A DNA stretch of 64,000 nucleotides from Rhodoferax sp. (GTDB lineage: Bacteria; Pseudomonadota; Gammaproteobacteria; Burkholderiales; Burkholderiaceae_C): contig JANNCN010000023.1 in NCBI GenBank assembly GCA_031386665.1, forward strand, positions 10,572 to 74,571. The letters are read 5' to 3'. The notes beneath the pieces were generated by a model. That model saw nothing but the letters and a program-made list of their open reading frames with translations. It was not told where the DNA came from and did no database searches. Positions 7,934-53,488 of the stretch are shown here, piece after piece. How positions within the stretch are numbered: position 1 is the first letter of the stretch; the number at the start of each line of letters is the position of its first letter. The position numbers and the translations under genes are program-made.

Positions 7934-9631
7934 TTGTCCTTTGACCGCTCTCGCGTGATTGGCCTCCAAGCAAATGCCCTGATTGCGGCACTGGCGGGGT
8001 TGGCCCATGCGGCTTCCATGGGTTCGCCGTGGGACGGCCAGCCTGTTGGGTGGTTGCAACTGCTGGCGATGGGCTGCTTGGTCTGGCAGCTTGACGGCAG
8101 GTTGTCTCGCCAGCCTTCGACAGATTCGACACCTTCGACACTTTCAGCACCTTTGACAAAAACCACACCTAGTTCAGCCAAAAGCGCGGGTTGGCTTGGC
8201 TGGGTGTTCACCACGGCCTGGCTTTGCGGCACGTTTTGGTGGCTCTACGTGTCCATGCACACCTATGGCGGGCTCAACTCAGTATTAACCGTTTTGGCGA
8301 TTGTTGCGTTGGCGGGCTTGCTGGCTTTGTATTACGCGGTGGCTTGCGCTGTCTATGTGCGTTGGGTACCTGCCAGTCCGGTTTGGGCGGCCGTGCTGTT
8401 TGCGGCACTCTGGACCATGGCTGAAATGTGCCGGGGCACCTGGTTTACCGGGTTTGGCTGGGGCGCAGCGGCCTATGCGCATTTGGACGGTTTGGCCGTC
8501 TTGGCACCTTTCATCGGGGCGTACGGCGTGGGGGCTGTGGCGGCTTTTGTGGCTTGCTTTGTGGCTTTGAACTTGCGCAACTGGGTGCAAGCCAAGGCCG
8601 ATTTGAAGTCAGGTTTGGTATCTGATTTGGGTCACCGCGTTGGCTGGTTCGCTCCTGCGTTGGTCGTGCTGGCGGTTGCGGTTTTGTTCCTTGATGGCGT
8701 GCGAAGTTGGGCCAGGCCCAGCTTCAGCCAGGCTGGCAACACCTTAAGCGTGGCGCTATTGCAAGGAAACATCAAGCAAAACGAGAAGTTTCAGCCCAGC
8801 ACAGGCATTGCCGATGCGCTGGCCTGGTACGGCGCTCAAATCAGCAGCGCCCAAAGCGCCTTGGTGGTGGCCCCCGAAACCGCCTTGCCGCTGCTGCCCC
8901 ACCAATTGCCAGAGGGCTACTGGCAAGCCCTGTTGGCGCAGTTTGCCAAGGGCGCTGTAGGGTCCAAGGCCCTGCTGGTTGGCATTCCGCTGGGCAGCTA
9001 CCGCGACGGTTACACCAATTCGGTGGTGGGGCTGCAAAATGGCCAAAACTACCAGTACGACAAACACCATTTGGTACCTTTTGGTGAATTCATTCCGCCT
9101 TTGTTCAAGTGGTTCACCAATTTGATGAACATTCCGCTGGGCGATTTCAATCGGGGTGCCGTGGGTCAGGCGTCGTTTGAACTGCAAGGCCAGCGCTTGG
9201 CACCCAATATTTGCTACGAAGACTTGTTTGGTGAAGAGTTGGGTGCCCGCTTTGCCAACCCGCTGCACGCGCCGACCATTTTTGTCAATGTCAGCAACAT
9301 TGGCTGGTTTGGTAACACCGTAGCGATTGACCAGCACCTGAGCATTTCGCGCCTGCGGGCCATGGAGTTCGAACGCCCGTTCATTCGCGCCACCAACACG
9401 GGGGCCACCGTCGTGATTGACCACACCGGCCGCGTCACCCATACGCTGCCGCGCCACACACGCGGCGTGCTGCTGGCCGATGTGCAGGGACGCACGGGCC
9501 AGGCAGACAACGGCTATGGTCTGACGCCGTTTGCCCACTGGGTATCGCGCTTTGGCTTGTGGCCTTATTGGCTGATCGCTTTGGGTGTTGTGCTGCTGGC
9601 GGCTGTGTTCAAACGGCACGCACCGCGCTGA
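7934..9631 (+). CDS. lnt: Apolipoprotein N-acyltransferase
   Basis: N-terminal polytopic region plus CN-hydrolase domain (VVAPETALP ... ICYEDLFG). Follows corC as in many proteobacteria. Start uncertain. Confidence 0.85.
   Translation: MSFDRSRVIGLQANALIAALAGLAHAASMGSPWDGQPVGWLQLLAMGCLVWQLDGRLSRQPSTDSTPSTLSAPLTKTTPSSAKSAGWLGWVFTTAWLCGTFWWLYVSMHTYGGLNSVLTVLAIVALAGLLALYYAVACAVYVRWVPASPVWAAVLFAALWTMAEMCRGTWFTGFGWGAAAYAHLDGLAVLAPFIGAYGVGAVAAFVACFVALNLRNWVQAKADLKSGLVSDLGHRVGWFAPALVVLAVAVLFLDGVRSWARPSFSQAGNTLSVALLQGNIKQNEKFQPSTGIADALAWYGAQISSAQSALVVAPETALPLLPHQLPEGYWQALLAQFAKGAVGSKALLVGIPLGSYRDGYTNSVVGLQNGQNYQYDKHHLVPFGEFIPPLFKWFTNLMNIPLGDFNRGAVGQASFELQGQRLAPNICYEDLFGEELGARFANPLHAPTIFVNVSNIGWFGNTVAIDQHLSISRLRAMEFERPFIRATNTGATVVIDHTGRVTHTLPRHTRGVLLADVQGRTGQADNGYGLTPFAHWVSRFGLWPYWLIALGVVLLAAVFKRHAPR
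8114..8167 (+). repeat. 3 x 18-nt imperfect tandem repeat inside lnt
   Basis: CCTTCGACA at 8114 and 8132, CCTTTGACA at 8150. Encodes PSTDST/PSTLSA/PLTKTT. Confidence 0.6.
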
Positions 9632-9674: not shown

Positions 9675-9803
9675 ATTTGCTATCTTTAATATAGCAAACT
9701 ATCTATATTATTAAAGAGATAGAGGCCTATATCATTCAAAAAAAGCGAATTTTGCCTCTTTTGGGTCATCAAATACCCAATTTGGGTATTTGATGACCCA
9801 AAA
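9675..9803 (+). repeat. AT-rich modular intergenic repeat, copy 2 (core plus 45-nt perfect palindrome 9759-9803)
   Basis: ATAGCAAACTATCTATATTATTAAAGAGATAGAGGCCTAT matches copy 29502 at about 37/40 positions, followed by 22-nt perfect arms around T9781. Confidence 0.7.
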
Positions 9804-47470: not shown

Positions 47471-50400
47471 ATGCCTCAGGGAATCATTCGAATTCGCGGT
47501 GCCCGTCAGCACAACCTAAAAAACCTCGATCTGGACATCCGCACGGGCGAATTGACCGTGGTGACAGGGCCCAGTGGTTCCGGCAAGTCAAGCCTGGTGT
47601 TCGACACGCTTTTCGCCGAAGGCCAAAGGCGCTACGTCGAAACTTTCTCGGCTTACGCGCGGCAGTTTTTAGACCGGATGGACAAACCCGCGGTGGATCG
47701 CGTGGATGGGGTGCCGCCCGCGATTGCGATTGACCAAACCAACCCGGTTCGATCGTCACGCTCGACGGTCGGCACCATGACCGAGTTGAACGACCACCTG
47801 AAGCTGCTATTCGCCCGCGCCGCACACTTGTTTGACCGAGACACCGCACGGCCAGTGTGCCACGACACGCCAGAGAGCATTTATGCCGAGTTGCAGGCTC
47901 GGTCTGCCAGCAATTCGGAGATGCGCCTTGCCATCACCTTTTCAGTCGAGTTGCCCGCCAGCGCAACGGCTGAAGAGGTTGAGCAATGGCTGTCGGTGAG
48001 TGGCTTCACGAAGGTTCAAGCGCAACGTGAGGTGGCGTCTGTCACTGGACCACGCAAAGTGATTGACGTGGTGGCCGACCGGTTTCGTTTGAGCGGCGTG
48101 GAGCGCGGTCGCGCGATTGAAGCCATTGAAGTCGCACTAAAGCACGGCAGCGGAAGGCTGTCTGTGTATGCGCTGGGCAGTGGCACTGATGCCACGTCTG
48201 ACATCTGGCGTTTTTCGACAGGCTTGCACTGCGCCGATAGCGACATTCGCTACACCGATCCCATTGCGTCCATGTTCTCGTTCAATTCTGCCGTGGGAGC
48301 CTGCGAAACCTGCCGGGGCTTTGGTCGAGTGATCGGTGTGGACTATGGCTTGGTCATTCCCAATGACAAGTTGACCTTGCGCGCCGGGGCGATCAAGCCC
48401 ATGCAAACTCCGGCCTGGAAAGAATGCCAAGGCGACCTGATGCGCCATGCGGAAAGCGCTGGCATTCCACGCGACACCGCCTGGAACAAGCTCACGCCCG
48501 AGCACCAACGCTGGGTTATCAACGGCTCGCCCAATTGGAATGGCAAGTGGAACCAGCACTGGTTTGGTATCAAACGTTTCTTTGAATACCTGGAAACTAA
48601 GGCCTACAAAATGCACATTCGCGTGCTGCTGTCCAAGTACCGCAGTTACACGCCGTGCGGCACTTGCGGCGGCGCTCGACTGAAGACGGACAGCCTGTTG
48701 TGGCGCTTGGGCAGCAAGGCCGAAGCCGACAGTGTTTTGGCCGCGAACCTTCGCCAATTGCCCCAGGGTGCCAAGTGGAGCCGCGAGCAACTGGAAGTCC
48801 TGCCAGGTCTGAATTTACACGATTTGATGCTGCTGCCCATTGATCGCCTCAGGCGGTTTTTTAGCGCCATGCAGACACAGCAAACAGATTTGACCCTGGG
48901 TGCAAAATCGAATTCAGAAAAGCCAAGTCAGGGCGAAGCGCAGGCGCTGAAACTGCTGTTTGAAGAAATCACGACGCGGCTCAAATACCTGTGCGATGTG
49001 GGCATTGGCTACCTGACGCTGGATCGCCAAAGCCGCACGCTCTCAGGCGGCGAAGTGCAACGGATCAATCTGACCACGGCGCTCGGTACCTCTTTGGTCA
49101 ACACGCTCTTCGTGCTGGATGAGCCCAGTATCGGTTTGCACCCGCGCGACATGCACCGCATTATTGAGGCCATGCATCGCTTGCGCAACGCAGGCAACAC
49201 GCTGGTGGTGGTGGAACACGACCCAGCGGTCATGTTGGCGGCAGATCGCATGATTGACATGGGGCCTGGGCCCGGCGAGCGCGGTGGGCAAATTGTGTTT
49301 GACGGCACGACGCAAGACCTGCGACAAGCCAACACCCTCACGGGGGTCTACTTGGGCGGACGCAAGCATGTTGGCCTGGGCTTCAAACGCCTAGTGGCTG
49401 ACAACACACCGCGTTTGATTTTGGAGAAGGCGTCTGACCACAATTTGAAGAACGTTACCGTCGAATTCCCATTGCAGCGGCTGGTGTGCGTCACGGGCGT
49501 CAGCGGTTCAGGCAAGTCAACGCTGATTCAAGACGTGCTGGCCCCCGCTTTGTTGCGCCACTTTGGCAAAGCCACAGAAACCCCGGGCGCGCATGAGCGG
49601 CTGCTGGGCGCGGACCATCTGAGTGAAGTGGTGTTTGTCGATCAGTCGCCGATTGGCAAAACTGCACGCTCCAACCCGGCAAGCTACGTCGGCGCTTGGG
49701 ATGCGATTCGAGAGATTTTTGCGAACGCTTACTTGGCTCGCCAGCGAAGCTACACCGCCAGCAAGTTCAGCTTTAACAGTGGCGATGGGCGCTGCCCGAC
49801 CTGCGGCGGCTCGGGCTTTGAGCACGTCGAAATGCAATTTTTAAGCGACGTTTACCTGCGCTGCCCAGACTGCGATGGCAAACGCTACCGGCCAGAGATT
49901 TTGGAAGTCATGATTGAGCGGCGCTCGGCGTTGGACGCGCGGCTGATCAGCCTGAACGTGGCTGACGTGCTGAACCTGACCGTGAGCGAAGCCGCACTGG
50001 TTTTCGAAAAAGACCGTGACGTGATTCGCGCCTTGCAGCCCATCGTTGATGTTGGCTTGGAGTACGTCAAATTGGGCCAACCCGTTCCCACGCTGTCGGG
50101 CGGGGAAGCCCAGCGTCTCAAACTGGCCGGGTTTCTGGCCGAGGCAGCCAAATCGTCAAGCGCCAGCCGCCAGGGCGTGGGGCGTCGGGGGACCTTGTTC
50201 ATGTTTGATGAGCCCACCACCGGCCTGCACTTTGACGACATCGCCAAACTGATGCGGGCCATGCGCAAACTACTGGATGCGGGCAATTCCTTGATCGTGA
50301 TTGAACACAACCTGGATGTGATTCGCGCCAGTGATTGGTTGATTGACCTGGGGCCAGAAGGCGGGGATGCAGGTGGTGAAATCGTGGCGGTGGGCACGCC

Positions 50401-50590
50401 TGACGACGTGAAGCTGCATTTGACGTCGCACACGGGCCGAGCGCTGCGCGACTATGAGCAGGCGCTGGGGGCGGGGTCGCACCAGGCGCAGGAACACGGA
50501 GTGAATTGGCAACTGGGTCAGGGGTTGAAATTGGGGTCAGATCGCAATTTTTCTGCGCAGCACCCGCAGGGTCGTCAAAAGGACGAGTAA
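47471..50590 (+). CDS. uvrA: UvrA-like ABC ATPase, module 1 of a tandem UvrA-UvrA frame (ends at TAA 50588-50590)
   Basis: IRIRGARQHNLKNL, two Walker A motifs (GPSGSGKSS, GVSGSGKST), two LSGGE(V/A)QR signatures, Cys clusters CETCRGFG / CGTCGGARL and CPTCGGSG / CPDCDGKRY. Confidence 0.85.
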   Translation: MPQGIIRIRGARQHNLKNLDLDIRTGELTVVTGPSGSGKSSLVFDTLFAEGQRRYVETFSAYARQFLDRMDKPAVDRVDGVPPAIAIDQTNPVRSSRSTVGTMTELNDHLKLLFARAAHLFDRDTARPVCHDTPESIYAELQARSASNSEMRLAITFSVELPASATAEEVEQWLSVSGFTKVQAQREVASVTGPRKVIDVVADRFRLSGVERGRAIEAIEVALKHGSGRLSVYALGSGTDATSDIWRFSTGLHCADSDIRYTDPIASMFSFNSAVGACETCRGFGRVIGVDYGLVIPNDKLTLRAGAIKPMQTPAWKECQGDLMRHAESAGIPRDTAWNKLTPEHQRWVINGSPNWNGKWNQHWFGIKRFFEYLETKAYKMHIRVLLSKYRSYTPCGTCGGARLKTDSLLWRLGSKAEADSVLAANLRQLPQGAKWSREQLEVLPGLNLHDLMLLPIDRLRRFFSAMQTQQTDLTLGAKSNSEKPSQGEAQALKLLFEEITTRLKYLCDVGIGYLTLDRQSRTLSGGEVQRINLTTALGTSLVNTLFVLDEPSIGLHPRDMHRIIEAMHRLRNAGNTLVVVEHDPAVMLAADRMIDMGPGPGERGGQIVFDGTTQDLRQANTLTGVYLGGRKHVGLGFKRLVADNTPRLILEKASDHNLKNVTVEFPLQRLVCVTGVSGSGKSTLIQDVLAPALLRHFGKATETPGAHERLLGADHLSEVVFVDQSPIGKTARSNPASYVGAWDAIREIFANAYLARQRSYTASKFSFNSGDGRCPTCGGSGFEHVEMQFLSDVYLRCPDCDGKRYRPEILEVMIERRSALDARLISLNVADVLNLTVSEAALVFEKDRDVIRALQPIVDVGLEYVKLGQPVPTLSGGEAQRLKLAGFLAEAAKSSSASRQGVGRRGTLFMFDEPTTGLHFDDIAKLMRAMRKLLDAGNSLIVIEHNLDVIRASDWLIDLGPEGGDAGGEIVAVGTPDDVKLHLTSHTGRALRDYEQALGAGSHQAQEHGVNWQLGQGLKLGSDRNFSAQHPQGRQKDE

Positions 50591-50625
50591 ATTTGGGCTC
50601 TGCCCCCAATTTCGACCCCTGACCC
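50515..50625. repeat. Composite palindromic element in the UvrA inter-module linker
   Basis: The 36/37-nt arms (50515-50550 and 50589-50625) differ by 4 mismatches and 1 indel, with a 38-nt spacer. TAA overlaps the inner edge of the right arm. Confidence 0.75.
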
Positions 50626-50689
50626 TGACTCGAACCCAGCCGCCAACGCCATCCAGATCATCAACGCCAAAGAGCACAACCTCAAGTCT

Positions 50690-53488
50690 TTGAGCGTCAA
50701 CATTCCACGCGGCAAATTCAACGTGGTCACGGGGGTGAGCGGCTCGGGAAAGTCCACCCTGGCGTTTGACATTTTGTTCAACGAAGGTCAGCGCCGCTAT
50801 TTGGAGTCGCTCAATGCCTACGCCCGCAGCATCGTGCAACCTGCGGGCAGGCCTGAAGTTGACGCGGTGTACGGCATTCCGCCAACGGTGGCAATAGAGC
50901 AGCGGCTGTCTCGCGGCGGGCGCAAAAGTACGGTCGGCACCACCACCGAGGTGTGGCACTTTTTGCGCCTGCTGTATGTGAAGCTGGGCACCCAGCATTG
51001 CATTCACGATGGCGCTGCCGTGGCCCCCCAAACGCCTGACAGCATCGCCGCGCAACTTCTCAAAAGCTTTCGGGGGCAGCACATTGGTTTGCTGAGTCCG
51101 TTGGTGATGAACCGCAAAGGCGTGTACACAGAACTGGCCGACTGGGCGCGCCCGCGCGGCTTCACCCACCTGCGGGTGGATGGCAACTTTTTGCCCACCA
51201 CCAATTTCCCGCGCATTGATCGCTTCAAAGAACACACGATTGAGCTGCCTGTGGCCAGTTTTGACGTGCTGCCTGACAAAGAATCGCGTCTGCGCGAAGC
51301 ACTGGCCAGTGCTCTGGTGCATGGTAAGGGCGTTGTGCATGTGCTCAGCGATTTGGGTGCCCTGCGTGCGGCAATGTTGGCGGGTACGCCCACGGCTGCC
51401 GTTGGCAAGCTCGATGTTTTTTCAACCAAGAGGGCCTGCCCGGTTTGCAGCACCAGCTATGCCGAGCTGGACCCGCGCCTGTTCAGTTACAACAGCAAAC
51501 ATGGGTGGTGCCCAGACTGCGTGGGCACGGGCGTCAAGCTGACCAAAGAGCAGCGCAAGGTGTTCGACGACTCGGTGAAAGACGATGACAACAAGGGCCG
51601 CGAGCAAACCTTTGCCGAACCCGAGGTCGAAGATCTGGTAGATGCCGCTTGCCCCACCTGCCACGGCGCCCGCCTGAACGCCAACGCTCGTGCGGTCACA
51701 TTCGCGAAAGTCGGCATCACGGACATTGCACGTTTGAGCGTGACCGACATCCGCAAATGGGTCGAGACGCTGCAAGCGGCGGGCGGTATGTCGTCGCGCG
51801 AAACCGACATTGCCCGAGACTTGATTCCCGAGATCAAAAGCCGCCTGGCGTTTTTAGAAGAAGTTGGGCTGGGCTACCTCACGCTAGACCGTGGTGCGCC
51901 CACGTTAAGCGGTGGCGAAGCCCAGCGTATTCGCCTAGCAGCCCAGTTGGGTAGCAACCTGCAAGGCGTGTGCTACGTGCTGGACGAGCCGACCATTGGC
52001 CTGCATGCGCGGGACAACAAAATTTTGCTGAGCGCCCTGCAAAGTTTGAGCGAAAAAGGCAACACCTTGGTGGTGGTGGAACATGATGTAGACACCATTC
52101 GCCATGCCGATCACATCATCGATATTGGCCCCAGCGCGGGCAAGCGCGGCGGGCGGCTGGTGGCCGAGGGTTCGGTGGCCGACATTCAAAACGCCGCCGA
52201 ATCGCAAACTGGCCGCTACTTGCTGCACGCGATGAAGCACCCGGTGCAAGCGCGCAGAGCCGTGATCTGGCCACCAGTCGAAGTCGGTCCATTGAAATTG
52301 CGGTCAGAGCCCAAATTCGCCGCACCTTTGGTGCGCCCTTTGGGTAAAGCGCTTCGCACTTCAGCGAAATTGCGATCTGCCCCCAATTTGGCCGCCGGCG
52401 ACCCCAGTTCCATCGCGGTGTCAAAACCGGCCTGGCTCACCGTTCAGTCCGCCAATTTGCACAACCTGCAGTCCGTCACCGCCAACATCCCCCTGCAGCG
52501 CCTGGTCGCCATTACGGGCGTGTCCGGCTCTGGCAAGTCAACGCTAGCCCGCGATGTGATGCTGGCCAACGTGCAAACTGCTGTTCAAAAACGCAGTACC
52601 AAAGCCGGTCGCGATGCGATTGCTGCAGGTGAAAAATTCAATTGGGTGGGCTGCCAAGGCGTCGAGGGATTTGAGGTGGTTGACCGCGTGCTCGAGGTCG
52701 ATCAAACGCCAATTGGGAAAACCCCGCGCAGTTGCCCCGCCACCTACATCGGCTTTTGGGACATCATTCGCAAGCTCTTTGCCGATACGCTAGAGGCCAA
52801 AGCACGTGGCTACGCAGCTAACCGGTTCAGCTTTAACACGGGCGAAGGTCGCTGCCCGAGTTGTGAGGGCCAAGGCATTCGCACCATCGCCATGAGTTTT
52901 TTGCCCGATGTGAAAGTGCTGTGCGAAACCTGCCGCGGCGCCCGGTTTAATCCCGAGACGCTGGCCGTCACCTGGCGCGGCAAAAACATTGGCGACGTGC
53001 TGCAAATGGAAGTTGACGAAGCGGTCGATTTTTTTGCCGCCATGCCCAACATCGGCCATCCCGTGCAGTTGCTCAAAGACGTGGGGTTGGGGTATTTGAC
53101 GTTGGGGCAACCATCGCCCACGCTGTCGGGCGGTGAAGCGCAGCGCATCAAGTTGGTGACCGAACTTAGCAAAGTGCGTGACGACATCACCAGGCGCGGC
53201 CAAAAGCCGCCGCACACCTTGTACGTGCTGGACGAGCCGACGGTGGGCCTGCACATGGCAGACGTTGAAAAGCTGATCAAAGTGCTTCACCGCCTGGTCG
53301 ATGGCGGCCACAGCGTGGTGGTGATTGAGCATGACCTGGACGTCATCGCCGAAGCCGATTGGGTGATTGACTTGGGACCCGACGGTGGCAATGCGGGCGG
53401 TCAGATTGTGGCGGCAACCACGCCCGAGAAGGTGGTGAAACTGGGAACGCACACGGGCGTCGCGCTGAAGGCGGTCTTGGCCAGATGA
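50690..53488 (+). CDS. uvrA: UvrA-like ABC ATPase, module 2 (same frame as module 1; conserved N-terminus extends upstream to 50591 with no canonical start)
   Basis: Two GVSGSGKST, two LSGGEAQRI, CPVCS..CPDCVGTG, CPTCHGARL, CPSCEGQG..CETCRGARF. The upstream in-frame sequence encodes AIQIINAKEHNLKSL. Confidence 0.75.
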   Translation: MSVNIPRGKFNVVTGVSGSGKSTLAFDILFNEGQRRYLESLNAYARSIVQPAGRPEVDAVYGIPPTVAIEQRLSRGGRKSTVGTTTEVWHFLRLLYVKLGTQHCIHDGAAVAPQTPDSIAAQLLKSFRGQHIGLLSPLVMNRKGVYTELADWARPRGFTHLRVDGNFLPTTNFPRIDRFKEHTIELPVASFDVLPDKESRLREALASALVHGKGVVHVLSDLGALRAAMLAGTPTAAVGKLDVFSTKRACPVCSTSYAELDPRLFSYNSKHGWCPDCVGTGVKLTKEQRKVFDDSVKDDDNKGREQTFAEPEVEDLVDAACPTCHGARLNANARAVTFAKVGITDIARLSVTDIRKWVETLQAAGGMSSRETDIARDLIPEIKSRLAFLEEVGLGYLTLDRGAPTLSGGEAQRIRLAAQLGSNLQGVCYVLDEPTIGLHARDNKILLSALQSLSEKGNTLVVVEHDVDTIRHADHIIDIGPSAGKRGGRLVAEGSVADIQNAAESQTGRYLLHAMKHPVQARRAVIWPPVEVGPLKLRSEPKFAAPLVRPLGKALRTSAKLRSAPNLAAGDPSSIAVSKPAWLTVQSANLHNLQSVTANIPLQRLVAITGVSGSGKSTLARDVMLANVQTAVQKRSTKAGRDAIAAGEKFNWVGCQGVEGFEVVDRVLEVDQTPIGKTPRSCPATYIGFWDIIRKLFADTLEAKARGYAANRFSFNTGEGRCPSCEGQGIRTIAMSFLPDVKVLCETCRGARFNPETLAVTWRGKNIGDVLQMEVDEAVDFFAAMPNIGHPVQLLKDVGLGYLTLGQPSPTLSGGEAQRIKLVTELSKVRDDITRRGQKPPHTLYVLDEPTVGLHMADVEKLIKVLHRLVDGGHSVVVIEHDLDVIAEADWVIDLGPDGGNAGGQIVAATTPEKVVKLGTHTGVALKAVLAR
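52294..52393. repeat. Second copy of the palindromic element, in frame inside UvrA module 2
   Basis: GAAATTGCGGTCAGAGCCCAAATTCGC (52294-52320) and the reverse complement of 52364-52393 (GGCCAAATTGGGGGCAGATCGCAATTTCGC) share the unit found at 50531-50550 and 50589-50615. Confidence 0.7.

Follow-up and report, generated by a model that had tools for sequence, protein, structure and literature searches.

A probable REP-doublet element in the linker of a double-uvrA gene, and a one-base change that supplies its internal stop codon

Palindromic repeats that lie in frame within protein genes and are tolerated there as extra peptides are known in Rickettsia as Rickettsia palindromic elements (RPEs); we know of no cognate transposase for them. 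The closest described systems to the repeat reported here are REPIN/RAYT (Bertels & Rainey 2011, PMC3116915) and TIR/TIRYT, in which the TIRs of RAYT-like genes share the motif GGGGWSAS (Di Nocera et al. 2013, PMC3733652). The same survey recorded REPs inside genes, many of them replication or repair genes, and listed among the hosts the uvrA gene of Thioalkalivibrio, with two REP dimers, and both uvrA genes of Opitutus terrae, with REP singles or dimers (PMC3733652). REP termini were also found often to supply the stop codons of ORFs (Di Nocera et al. 2013, PMC3733652).

The gene considered here lies in a 64-kb window (the whole stretch of DNA that was analysed), encodes two UvrA-like modules and is interrupted by an in-frame stop within a palindromic insertion. 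The account we favor, and consider likely to be correct, is that the insertion is a REP-doublet (REPIN-like) non-autonomous element of a Rhodoferax/Comamonadaceae family and that a one-base change from AAA to TAA within it cut the double-uvrA gene.

A composite palindrome between two UvrA modules

The ORF list and a domain search divide the host gene as follows.

47471-50590, plus strand: ORF 1 (1039 aa), UvrA-like module 1 followed by an element-encoded tail, ending at TAA
50591-53488, plus strand: open frame of 965 codons plus stop, UvrA-like module 2 with a UvrA_inter domain

These two intervals share a reading frame, so the TAA is in frame, and four G-x-SGSGKS (Walker A) sites lie in that one frame, which is interrupted only where TAA occupies 50588-50590. 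Module 1 has two ABC ATPase domains and a UvrA_DNA-bind domain; the domain search returned no UvrA_inter match in it. Each half is by itself a complete UvrA-like module. Owing to the TAA the locus does not encode a fused double UvrA, that is, two complete modules in one polypeptide. The first canonical start in the module 2 frame is the TTG at 50690, already within the first ATPase domain, and module 2 shows no other defect over its 965 codons. Compared with the closest relative (locus L121), module 1 has a dN/dS of 0.061 and module 2 one of 0.064, at a dS of about 0.56-0.61; these values are pairwise averages over both lineages at dS ~0.6 and as such are blind to recent loss. With dN/dS near 0.06 in both modules and module 2 intact, the break appears to be recent, or else tolerated, or an error.

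The stop codon lies within a large inverted repeat whose parts, defined by repeat and pattern searches, folding, translation, linker comparison and alignment, are these.

50515-50527, plus strand: outer inverted repeat, left half, GGGTCAGGGGTTG, pairing with 50613-50625 (repeat search, alignment)
50528-50612, minus strand: core of the composite palindromic element, short form, 85 nt (alignment of eight family copies and pattern matches)
50528-50550, plus strand: hairpin unit "arm B", AAATTGGGGTCAGATCGCAATTT, read in frame as K-L-G-S-D-R-N-F (repeat search, pattern search)
50551-50589, plus strand: central spacer with two small stems (CTGCG...CGCAG and GTCGTC...GACGAG), conserved in family copies (fold, alignment)
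50588-50590, plus strand: in-frame TAA at the junction of spacer and arm A (translation, linker comparison, alignment)
50590-50612, minus strand: hairpin unit "arm A", AAATTGGGGGCAGAGCCCAAATT on the minus strand (repeat search, alignment)
50613-50625, plus strand: outer inverted repeat, right half, CGACCCCTGACCC (repeat search, alignment)

A preliminary description of this DNA had placed the left arm at 50515-50550 (GGGTCAGGGGTTGAAATTGGGGTCAGATCGCAATTT) and the right arm at the reverse complement of 50589-50625, with four mismatches and one indel between the arms, a spacing of 38 nt, a small palindrome inside each arm and the TAA overlapping the inner edge of the right arm. The arm sequences given there agree base for base with the window, the divergence, spacing and stop position are likewise correct, and the stop is physically within the element. 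Our repeat search recovers one small palindrome per arm and extends the arms to 40 nt each (50515-50554 and 50586-50625) at 85% complementarity; the 22-nt arm pattern has a chance expectation of 0.00 in the window. The predicted fold of 50500-50640 is a strong hairpin both as DNA and as RNA. As single-stranded DNA it reaches −40.1 kcal/mol, compared with −19.6 ± 3.1 for shuffled sequences (z = −6.6), and none of 200 shuffles folded equally well; as RNA, z = −5.5.

The core at 50528-50612 is reversed relative to the canonical order of the family (arm A, centre, arm B). Outside it, 13 nt to the left (50515-50527) and 13 nt to the right (50613-50625) form a local inverted repeat that is missing from other family copies and is probably the remnant of a resident hairpin. 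The palindrome reaches still further, past the element: TTGGCAACTGGGT at 50506-50518 mirrors ACCCAGCCGCCAA at 50634-50646, which encodes N-P-A-A-N, and P-A-A-N is also found in the nearest relatives. The L121 copy likewise mirrors its own flank, and this mirroring points to template switching, with one arm serving as the pattern for the other. Promoter and terminator scans of 50200-50900 gave nothing promoter-like or terminator-like and no T run, which argues that the hairpin is not an intrinsic terminator and that the element brings no obvious promoter. An Rfam scan of 50300-52600 at E <= 10 returned noise only, in the form of miRNA-precursor-like matches far under their gathering scores. Elsewhere in the window, at 9759-9803, there is a perfect 22+22-nt palindrome (TTTTGGGTCATCAAATACCCAA and TTGGGTATTTGATGACCCAAAA, with 1 nt between the arms) of a sequence unrelated to that of the uvrA-linker element.

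A 16-nt unit-core search and alignment located a second copy in the same gene, overlooked in the preliminary description.

52295-52389, plus strand: second composite, long form, 95 nt, canonical orientation

This copy is in frame and stop-free, encodes KLRSEPKFAAPLVRPLGKALRTSAKLRSAPN, and sits in the linker separating the two ATPase domains of module 2. Decay has gone further here (fold z = −2.7) than in the copy at 50528-50612. These two are the only copies in the 64-kb window, and in the syntenic contigs (two or three, 111 kb) every unit-like match is likewise inside the double-UvrA gene. For a mainly extragenic repeat it is unusual that all copies near the locus should be intragenic, and this counts against the REPIN-like reading.

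The repeat family, its spread and its intragenic copies

The family element consists of two 23-nt units, AAATTGGGGKCAGAKCSCAAWTT (containing GGGGTCAG), inverted around a conserved centre of about 40-50 nt. The unit is self-complementary, as the short imperfect palindromes of REPs and REPINs are, and the pair forms the long hairpin expected of an inverted REP doublet, with arms 85% complementary and the same architecture in eight copies; GGGGTCAG fits the GGGGWSAS motif of TIRYT-associated TIRs. The alignment of the eight composites spans 85 nt in the short form and 95 nt in the long form, the centre GACCCTGCGGGTGCTGCGCAGAAAAATTGCGATCTG included, and composites with the conserved centre of the window copy were found in Rhodoferax/Comamonadaceae MAGs at L008, L066, L089 (twice) and L120 as well as at L121. 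Scanning GTDB representative genomes with AAATTGGGGNCAGANCNCAANTT gave at least 120 unit loci, mostly from Comamonadaceae among the matches listed, where the genera are Rhodoferax, Limnohabitans, Variovorax, Polaromonas, Ramlibacter, Brachymonas and Ottowia and several MAGs hold many loci each. That the element belongs to a dispersed palindromic repeat family, as had been proposed, is borne out by these loci and by composites that Rhodoferax/Comamonadaceae MAGs carry in further genes and in DNA that appears to be non-coding. Neither GTAG nor CGTC, the end tags of the superfamilies of Di Nocera et al. (2013), is conserved in the aligned copies, the flanks of which are variable.

The perfect palindrome AAATTGGGGTCAGACCCCAATTT also occurs in distant phyla. 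It was found in Actinomycetes, Gaiellales, Desulfurivibrio and Alphaproteobacteria MAGs, and in two Clostridia MAGs (L114 2211-3085 and L027 3938-4816) a near-identical hairpin, GAGAAATTGGGGACAGACCCCAATTTCTC, brackets Y1 transposase genes; such a spread is unusually broad for one REP-like unit. In JGI metagenome contigs a search for the present copy with either allele at the stop (AAGGACGAGNAAATTTGGGCTCTG) gave no matches, and a broader composite pattern gave two, both at contig ends, a rarity that counts against the preferred reading. A literature search for the unit sequence or for the peptides KLGSDPNF and NWGQTPI found no relevant paper.

An IS200-like transposase domain (Y1_Tnp, PF01797) was found within a few hundred bases of a unit in five of the 120 loci listed (L033, L078, L064, L114 and L027), some of them bracketed by units on both sides; together with L125 these are the relatives in which a candidate cognate Y1/HUH gene has the unit at its ends. 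Homologues of the L033 protein occur in a conserved context, aroB-dgt-Y1_Tnp-gltB. At L125 the hairpin units start at the transposase stop codon, and at L124 diverged units follow the gene. More broadly, a single-copy Y1 transposase between dgt and gltB is conserved in Burkholderiales (L033 3437-4480; L078 1298-2220; L124/L125/L126 4001-4900), with hairpin units of the family at or just past its stop codon. The 64-kb window itself contains no Y1 transposase, which counts against the reading, and the apparent link between unit and transposase is one of relatives only.

To call a copy intragenic we required an open frame of 80 codons and a GC3 signature on both sides. By this combined test 17 of the 114 unit matches evaluated, taken from the matches listed, are intragenic and 97 are not. 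The KLGSDPNF-like frame is the one read in 14 of the 17, and nine of the 17 are in double-uvrA genes: six Limnohabitans/Comamonadaceae genomes share a common site in module 1, L097 has a different site, and the copies of L013 and L108 occupy the site of the second copy in the window. The remaining intragenic hosts are hrpA and genes for a penicillin acylase, an acyl-CoA dehydrogenase, mnmA and an HlyB-type exporter; a gspE copy (L120) is intragenic by its spanning ORF alone. Our first census, which required only a spanning ORF of at least 900 nt, had put 67 of 130 matches in genes and was dropped because spurious ORFs, arising in GC-rich DNA, had inflated the count.

All frames of the unit are free of stop codons, and its KLGSDPNF frame is hydrophilic. 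A stop-free unit with one hydrophilic frame, together with selection against disruptive insertions, would be the most economical explanation of the in-frame pattern. A separate case is the HlyB-type ABC exporter gene of a Comamonadaceae MAG (L089 6406-8000, JAYVNK010000619.1), which contains three copies of the composite. Of these, the first keeps the frame, the second causes a frameshift and takes the place of about 25 transmembrane-helix codons, and the third starts near 7940; the gene is probably dead or misassembled.

Orthologous linkers and the origin of the stop codon

With the joined window protein as query, every one of the best 120 homologues is a single fused polypeptide (1908-2328 aa), and those with a named source are mostly labelled Rhodoferax. 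In the alignment of 121 sequences, length varies at eight hot spots, which lie near window residues 147, 189, 234, 465, 819, 1009, 1412 and 1599, and the inserts found there are largely palindromic-repeat peptides. KLGSDPNF and NWGQIPI come from the family of the present unit, and at least four other insert types recur (SLRGTKQSMP...ARND, SPGASDASSTSLPG, LPLPxGEGRGEG and VRPELVEG). The two copies in the window fill two of the eight hot spots, and at that of the 52295-52389 copy the subfamily in the window is not the one in L121, and the two lie in opposite orientation. The sequence TCTGACCACAATTTGAAAAAC (49433-49445), which encodes the conserved UvrA motif SDHNLKN, is a near copy of the right half of the hairpin, CTGACCCCAATTT. 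Similar motif codons encode EHNLKS (about 50669-50686) and NLHNLQS (about 52455-52475), and both window insertions are roughly 12-25 codons upstream of a motif of the EHNLKS/NLHNLQS type, by chance or through target mimicry.

At the inter-module linker the orthologue alignment identifies the block as an insertion and not an ancient linker, the block being missing in most orthologues and P0002 having only a single 21-nt hairpin there. P0002-P0006 (86% identity) all carry a single hairpin at this position, with the peptide NWGQTPI or NWGQNPI. The suggestion that excision of about 110 nt would restore a normal short linker is therefore only approximately right, since the ancestral linker of the clade probably already had a hairpin unit encoding NWGQTPI. 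Around the window and L121 copies the flanks form inverted rather than direct repeats, and comparison with the single-hairpin state of L122 likewise shows no target-site duplication of the kind expected of a MITE. Nor could a clean empty site be reconstructed among the relatives compared. Both results count against the preferred reading, and can be attributed to flanks that are themselves palindromic and that diverge between relatives.

The closest relative (P0001, 91% identity, syntenic locus L121) carries the same short-form composite in the same linker in the opposite orientation, and there the gene reads through it as KLGSEPKFSRPSADPSGAAQKNCDLTPI. This argues against the suggestion in the preliminary description that the insertion of hairpin DNA was itself what split the gene. 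Nor is insertion sufficient to bring in a stop, since family copies are stop-free in frame at 52295-52389 and in hrpA, gspE, mnmA and the HlyB-type exporter gene. On the canonical strand five of the eight aligned copies have AAATTT-T-CTCG after arm A, where the window copy has A in place of the single T. On the plus strand of the window this turns GAG AAA ATT into GAG TAA ATT, so that the TAA is one base from a lysine codon, and with the consensus base the frame would continue as ...GRQKDEKIWALPPISTPDPDSNPAAN.... As read from these alignments, the element supplies a stop only by a one-base departure from its own consensus, in this orientation. Given the open L121 copy and a TAA one base off consensus, a point change, possibly accompanied by inversion, appears to have split the gene, and not insertion alone.

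From these comparisons we infer the transposition mechanism, the inversion and the following order of events. The units were presumably spread by a single-copy IS200-like Y1 transposase of the RAYT/TIRYT type acting on hairpin DNA, a step suggested by published related systems and by the association of gene and repeat in relatives. Copies landing in the flexible linkers of the long double-UvrA gene would survive if they kept the frame and contained no stop, and with a stop-free unit and permissive linkers the gene would have become a sink for such repeats. The linker copy of the window would then have come to lie in the orientation opposite to that of L121 and to bear the AAA to TAA change at the junction of spacer and arm. 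As a consequence ORF 1 would terminate just past module 1, and module 2 would be left without a proper start.

Whether the window copy is the L121 copy inverted is less certain. The central stem contains CGTCC in the window and L121 linker copies only, where other copies have CGGC, and this shared derived substitution is weak evidence for one insertion that was later inverted. A serious alternative, to which we assign a substantial though lesser chance, is that the window copy is an independent insertion at a hot spot, targeted to the resident hairpin. The flanks of the two copies do differ, the window having 6 extra nt on each side (GGGTTG and CGACCC) as well as a right flank that is longer; the window copy resembles copies in unrelated genes about as closely as it does the L121 copy; and the different subfamilies and opposite orientations at the second site imply that turnover is fast. 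The choice between inversion and independent insertion turns on the one CGTCC substitution.

It is unlikely, but worth stating, that the TAA is a sequencing or assembly error and that the true gene is a continuous ORF of 2004 codons in which the element is read as ...GRQKDEKIWALPPI.... A stop that is a single base off the family consensus, flanks in the same frame, a module 2 without decay and 120 best homologues that are all fused would each be expected of such an error. Broken copies or assembly errors are in fact common at the double-uvrA locus in public assemblies: many of the sequences P0241-P0360 are short calls of the gene on long contigs with out-of-frame tails, one of which (...SASSTRASTT) is a frameshifted reading of IQIINAKEHNL, so assembly errors do hit the locus. 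A junction-focused protein search for naturally split orthologues gave mostly fragmentary calls, several with frameshifted tails, that are indistinguishable from assembly errors. Against an error here, the defects in other assemblies look like frameshifts and not substitutions, and the window sequence shows no sign of low quality at this point.

Canonical UvrA works as a dimer, and the two halves of the split gene could be imagined as separate functional polypeptides that associate as UvrA subunits do, with re-initiation at ATT 50591, CTG 50600 or TTG 50690. One feature bears on this, found by reading the sequence.

50579-50593, plus strand: AAGGA at 50579-50583, 7 nt before the ATT (50591-50593) directly after the TAA

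Speculatively, AAGGA and this ATT may form a weak re-initiation site; the break also falls in the linker between the modules, where it would do least harm, and module 2 is as constrained as module 1. We nevertheless find a functional split improbable: there is no canonical start before the ATPase domain and no promoter-like site in 50200-50900, none of the best 120 homologues has the arrangement, and a pairwise dN/dS at dS ~0.6 cannot detect recent loss.

More speculative still, and very improbable in our estimation, is the proposal that the linker doublet flips by way of its inverted arms, through recombination or template switching, and so acts as a switch between a fused and a truncated repair paralogue, with UvrA-type genes being preferred and not merely permissive targets. 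One orientation would then be read through and the other would terminate translation, in a heritable manner; the target preference could follow from the mimicry of half a hairpin by the HNLKN-motif codons. An ancient conserved linker or a structured regulatory RNA, for which the strong hairpin might speak, is rejected because most orthologues lack the block and other genomes carry copies of it both in unrelated genes and in non-coding DNA, and neither an Rfam match above noise nor a terminator-like T run was found.

Comparison with known systems

The element together with its one-base change remains our preferred reading of the locus, which would be a clear and datable example of the remodelling of a protein gene by REP-type hairpin repeats. 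Such repeats appear to add linker peptides and to turn over fast at a few sites, and one more base change is then enough to truncate a 2000-residue repair protein. The wider hot-spot pattern is the more useful result: a length spread of 420 residues among the double-UvrA proteins of relatives can be traced to at least five palindromic repeat families in eight linkers. That uvrA genes repeatedly host intragenic REPs was observed in 2013, and the present locus extends this to an independent lineage. For annotators, "split" or oversized uvrA paralogues of Comamonadaceae may reflect repeat insertions.

With REPIN/RAYT (Bertels & Rainey 2011, PMC3116915) and TIR/TIRYT (PMC3733652) the family shares a short imperfect palindrome dispersed as a family, an inverted pair of units forming a hairpin of about 85-110 nt, and, in relatives, a unit abutting a single-copy Y1 (HUH) transposase in a conserved chromosomal context, and with the TIRs of TIRYTs it shares the GGGGWSAS motif. 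It differs in that the unit lacks the GTAG/CGTC tag, the transposase link comes from relatives, the copies near the locus are all intragenic and the unit occurs also in distant phyla. The intragenic uvrA REPs of Di Nocera et al. are similar in being in-frame REP dimers at more than one site per gene, in adding some 20-30 residues and in supplying stop codons; the repeat family, the taxon and the fused double-UvrA host are different. Moreover, the REP stops of that study end an ORF at its normal terminus, whereas the stop described here is internal and cuts an otherwise continuous gene.

Like RPEs, the element is inserted in frame into coding genes, but its host lineage is a different one (Comamonadaceae, not Rickettsia) and its sequence is presumably unrelated to theirs. 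MITEs, for example the Correia elements of Neisseria, resemble it in small size, terminal inverted repeats, non-autonomy and effects on adjacent or host genes. Unlike MITEs, it shows no direct target-site duplication, and its arms are themselves hairpins, as in REPs; among the loci retrieved there was no parent IS whose ends match. By its unit, its inverted pair and the Y1 link in relatives, the element is REP/REPIN-like. What is new at this locus is the repeat family, its host lineage and a striking host gene, and not a new kind of element, mechanism or principle.
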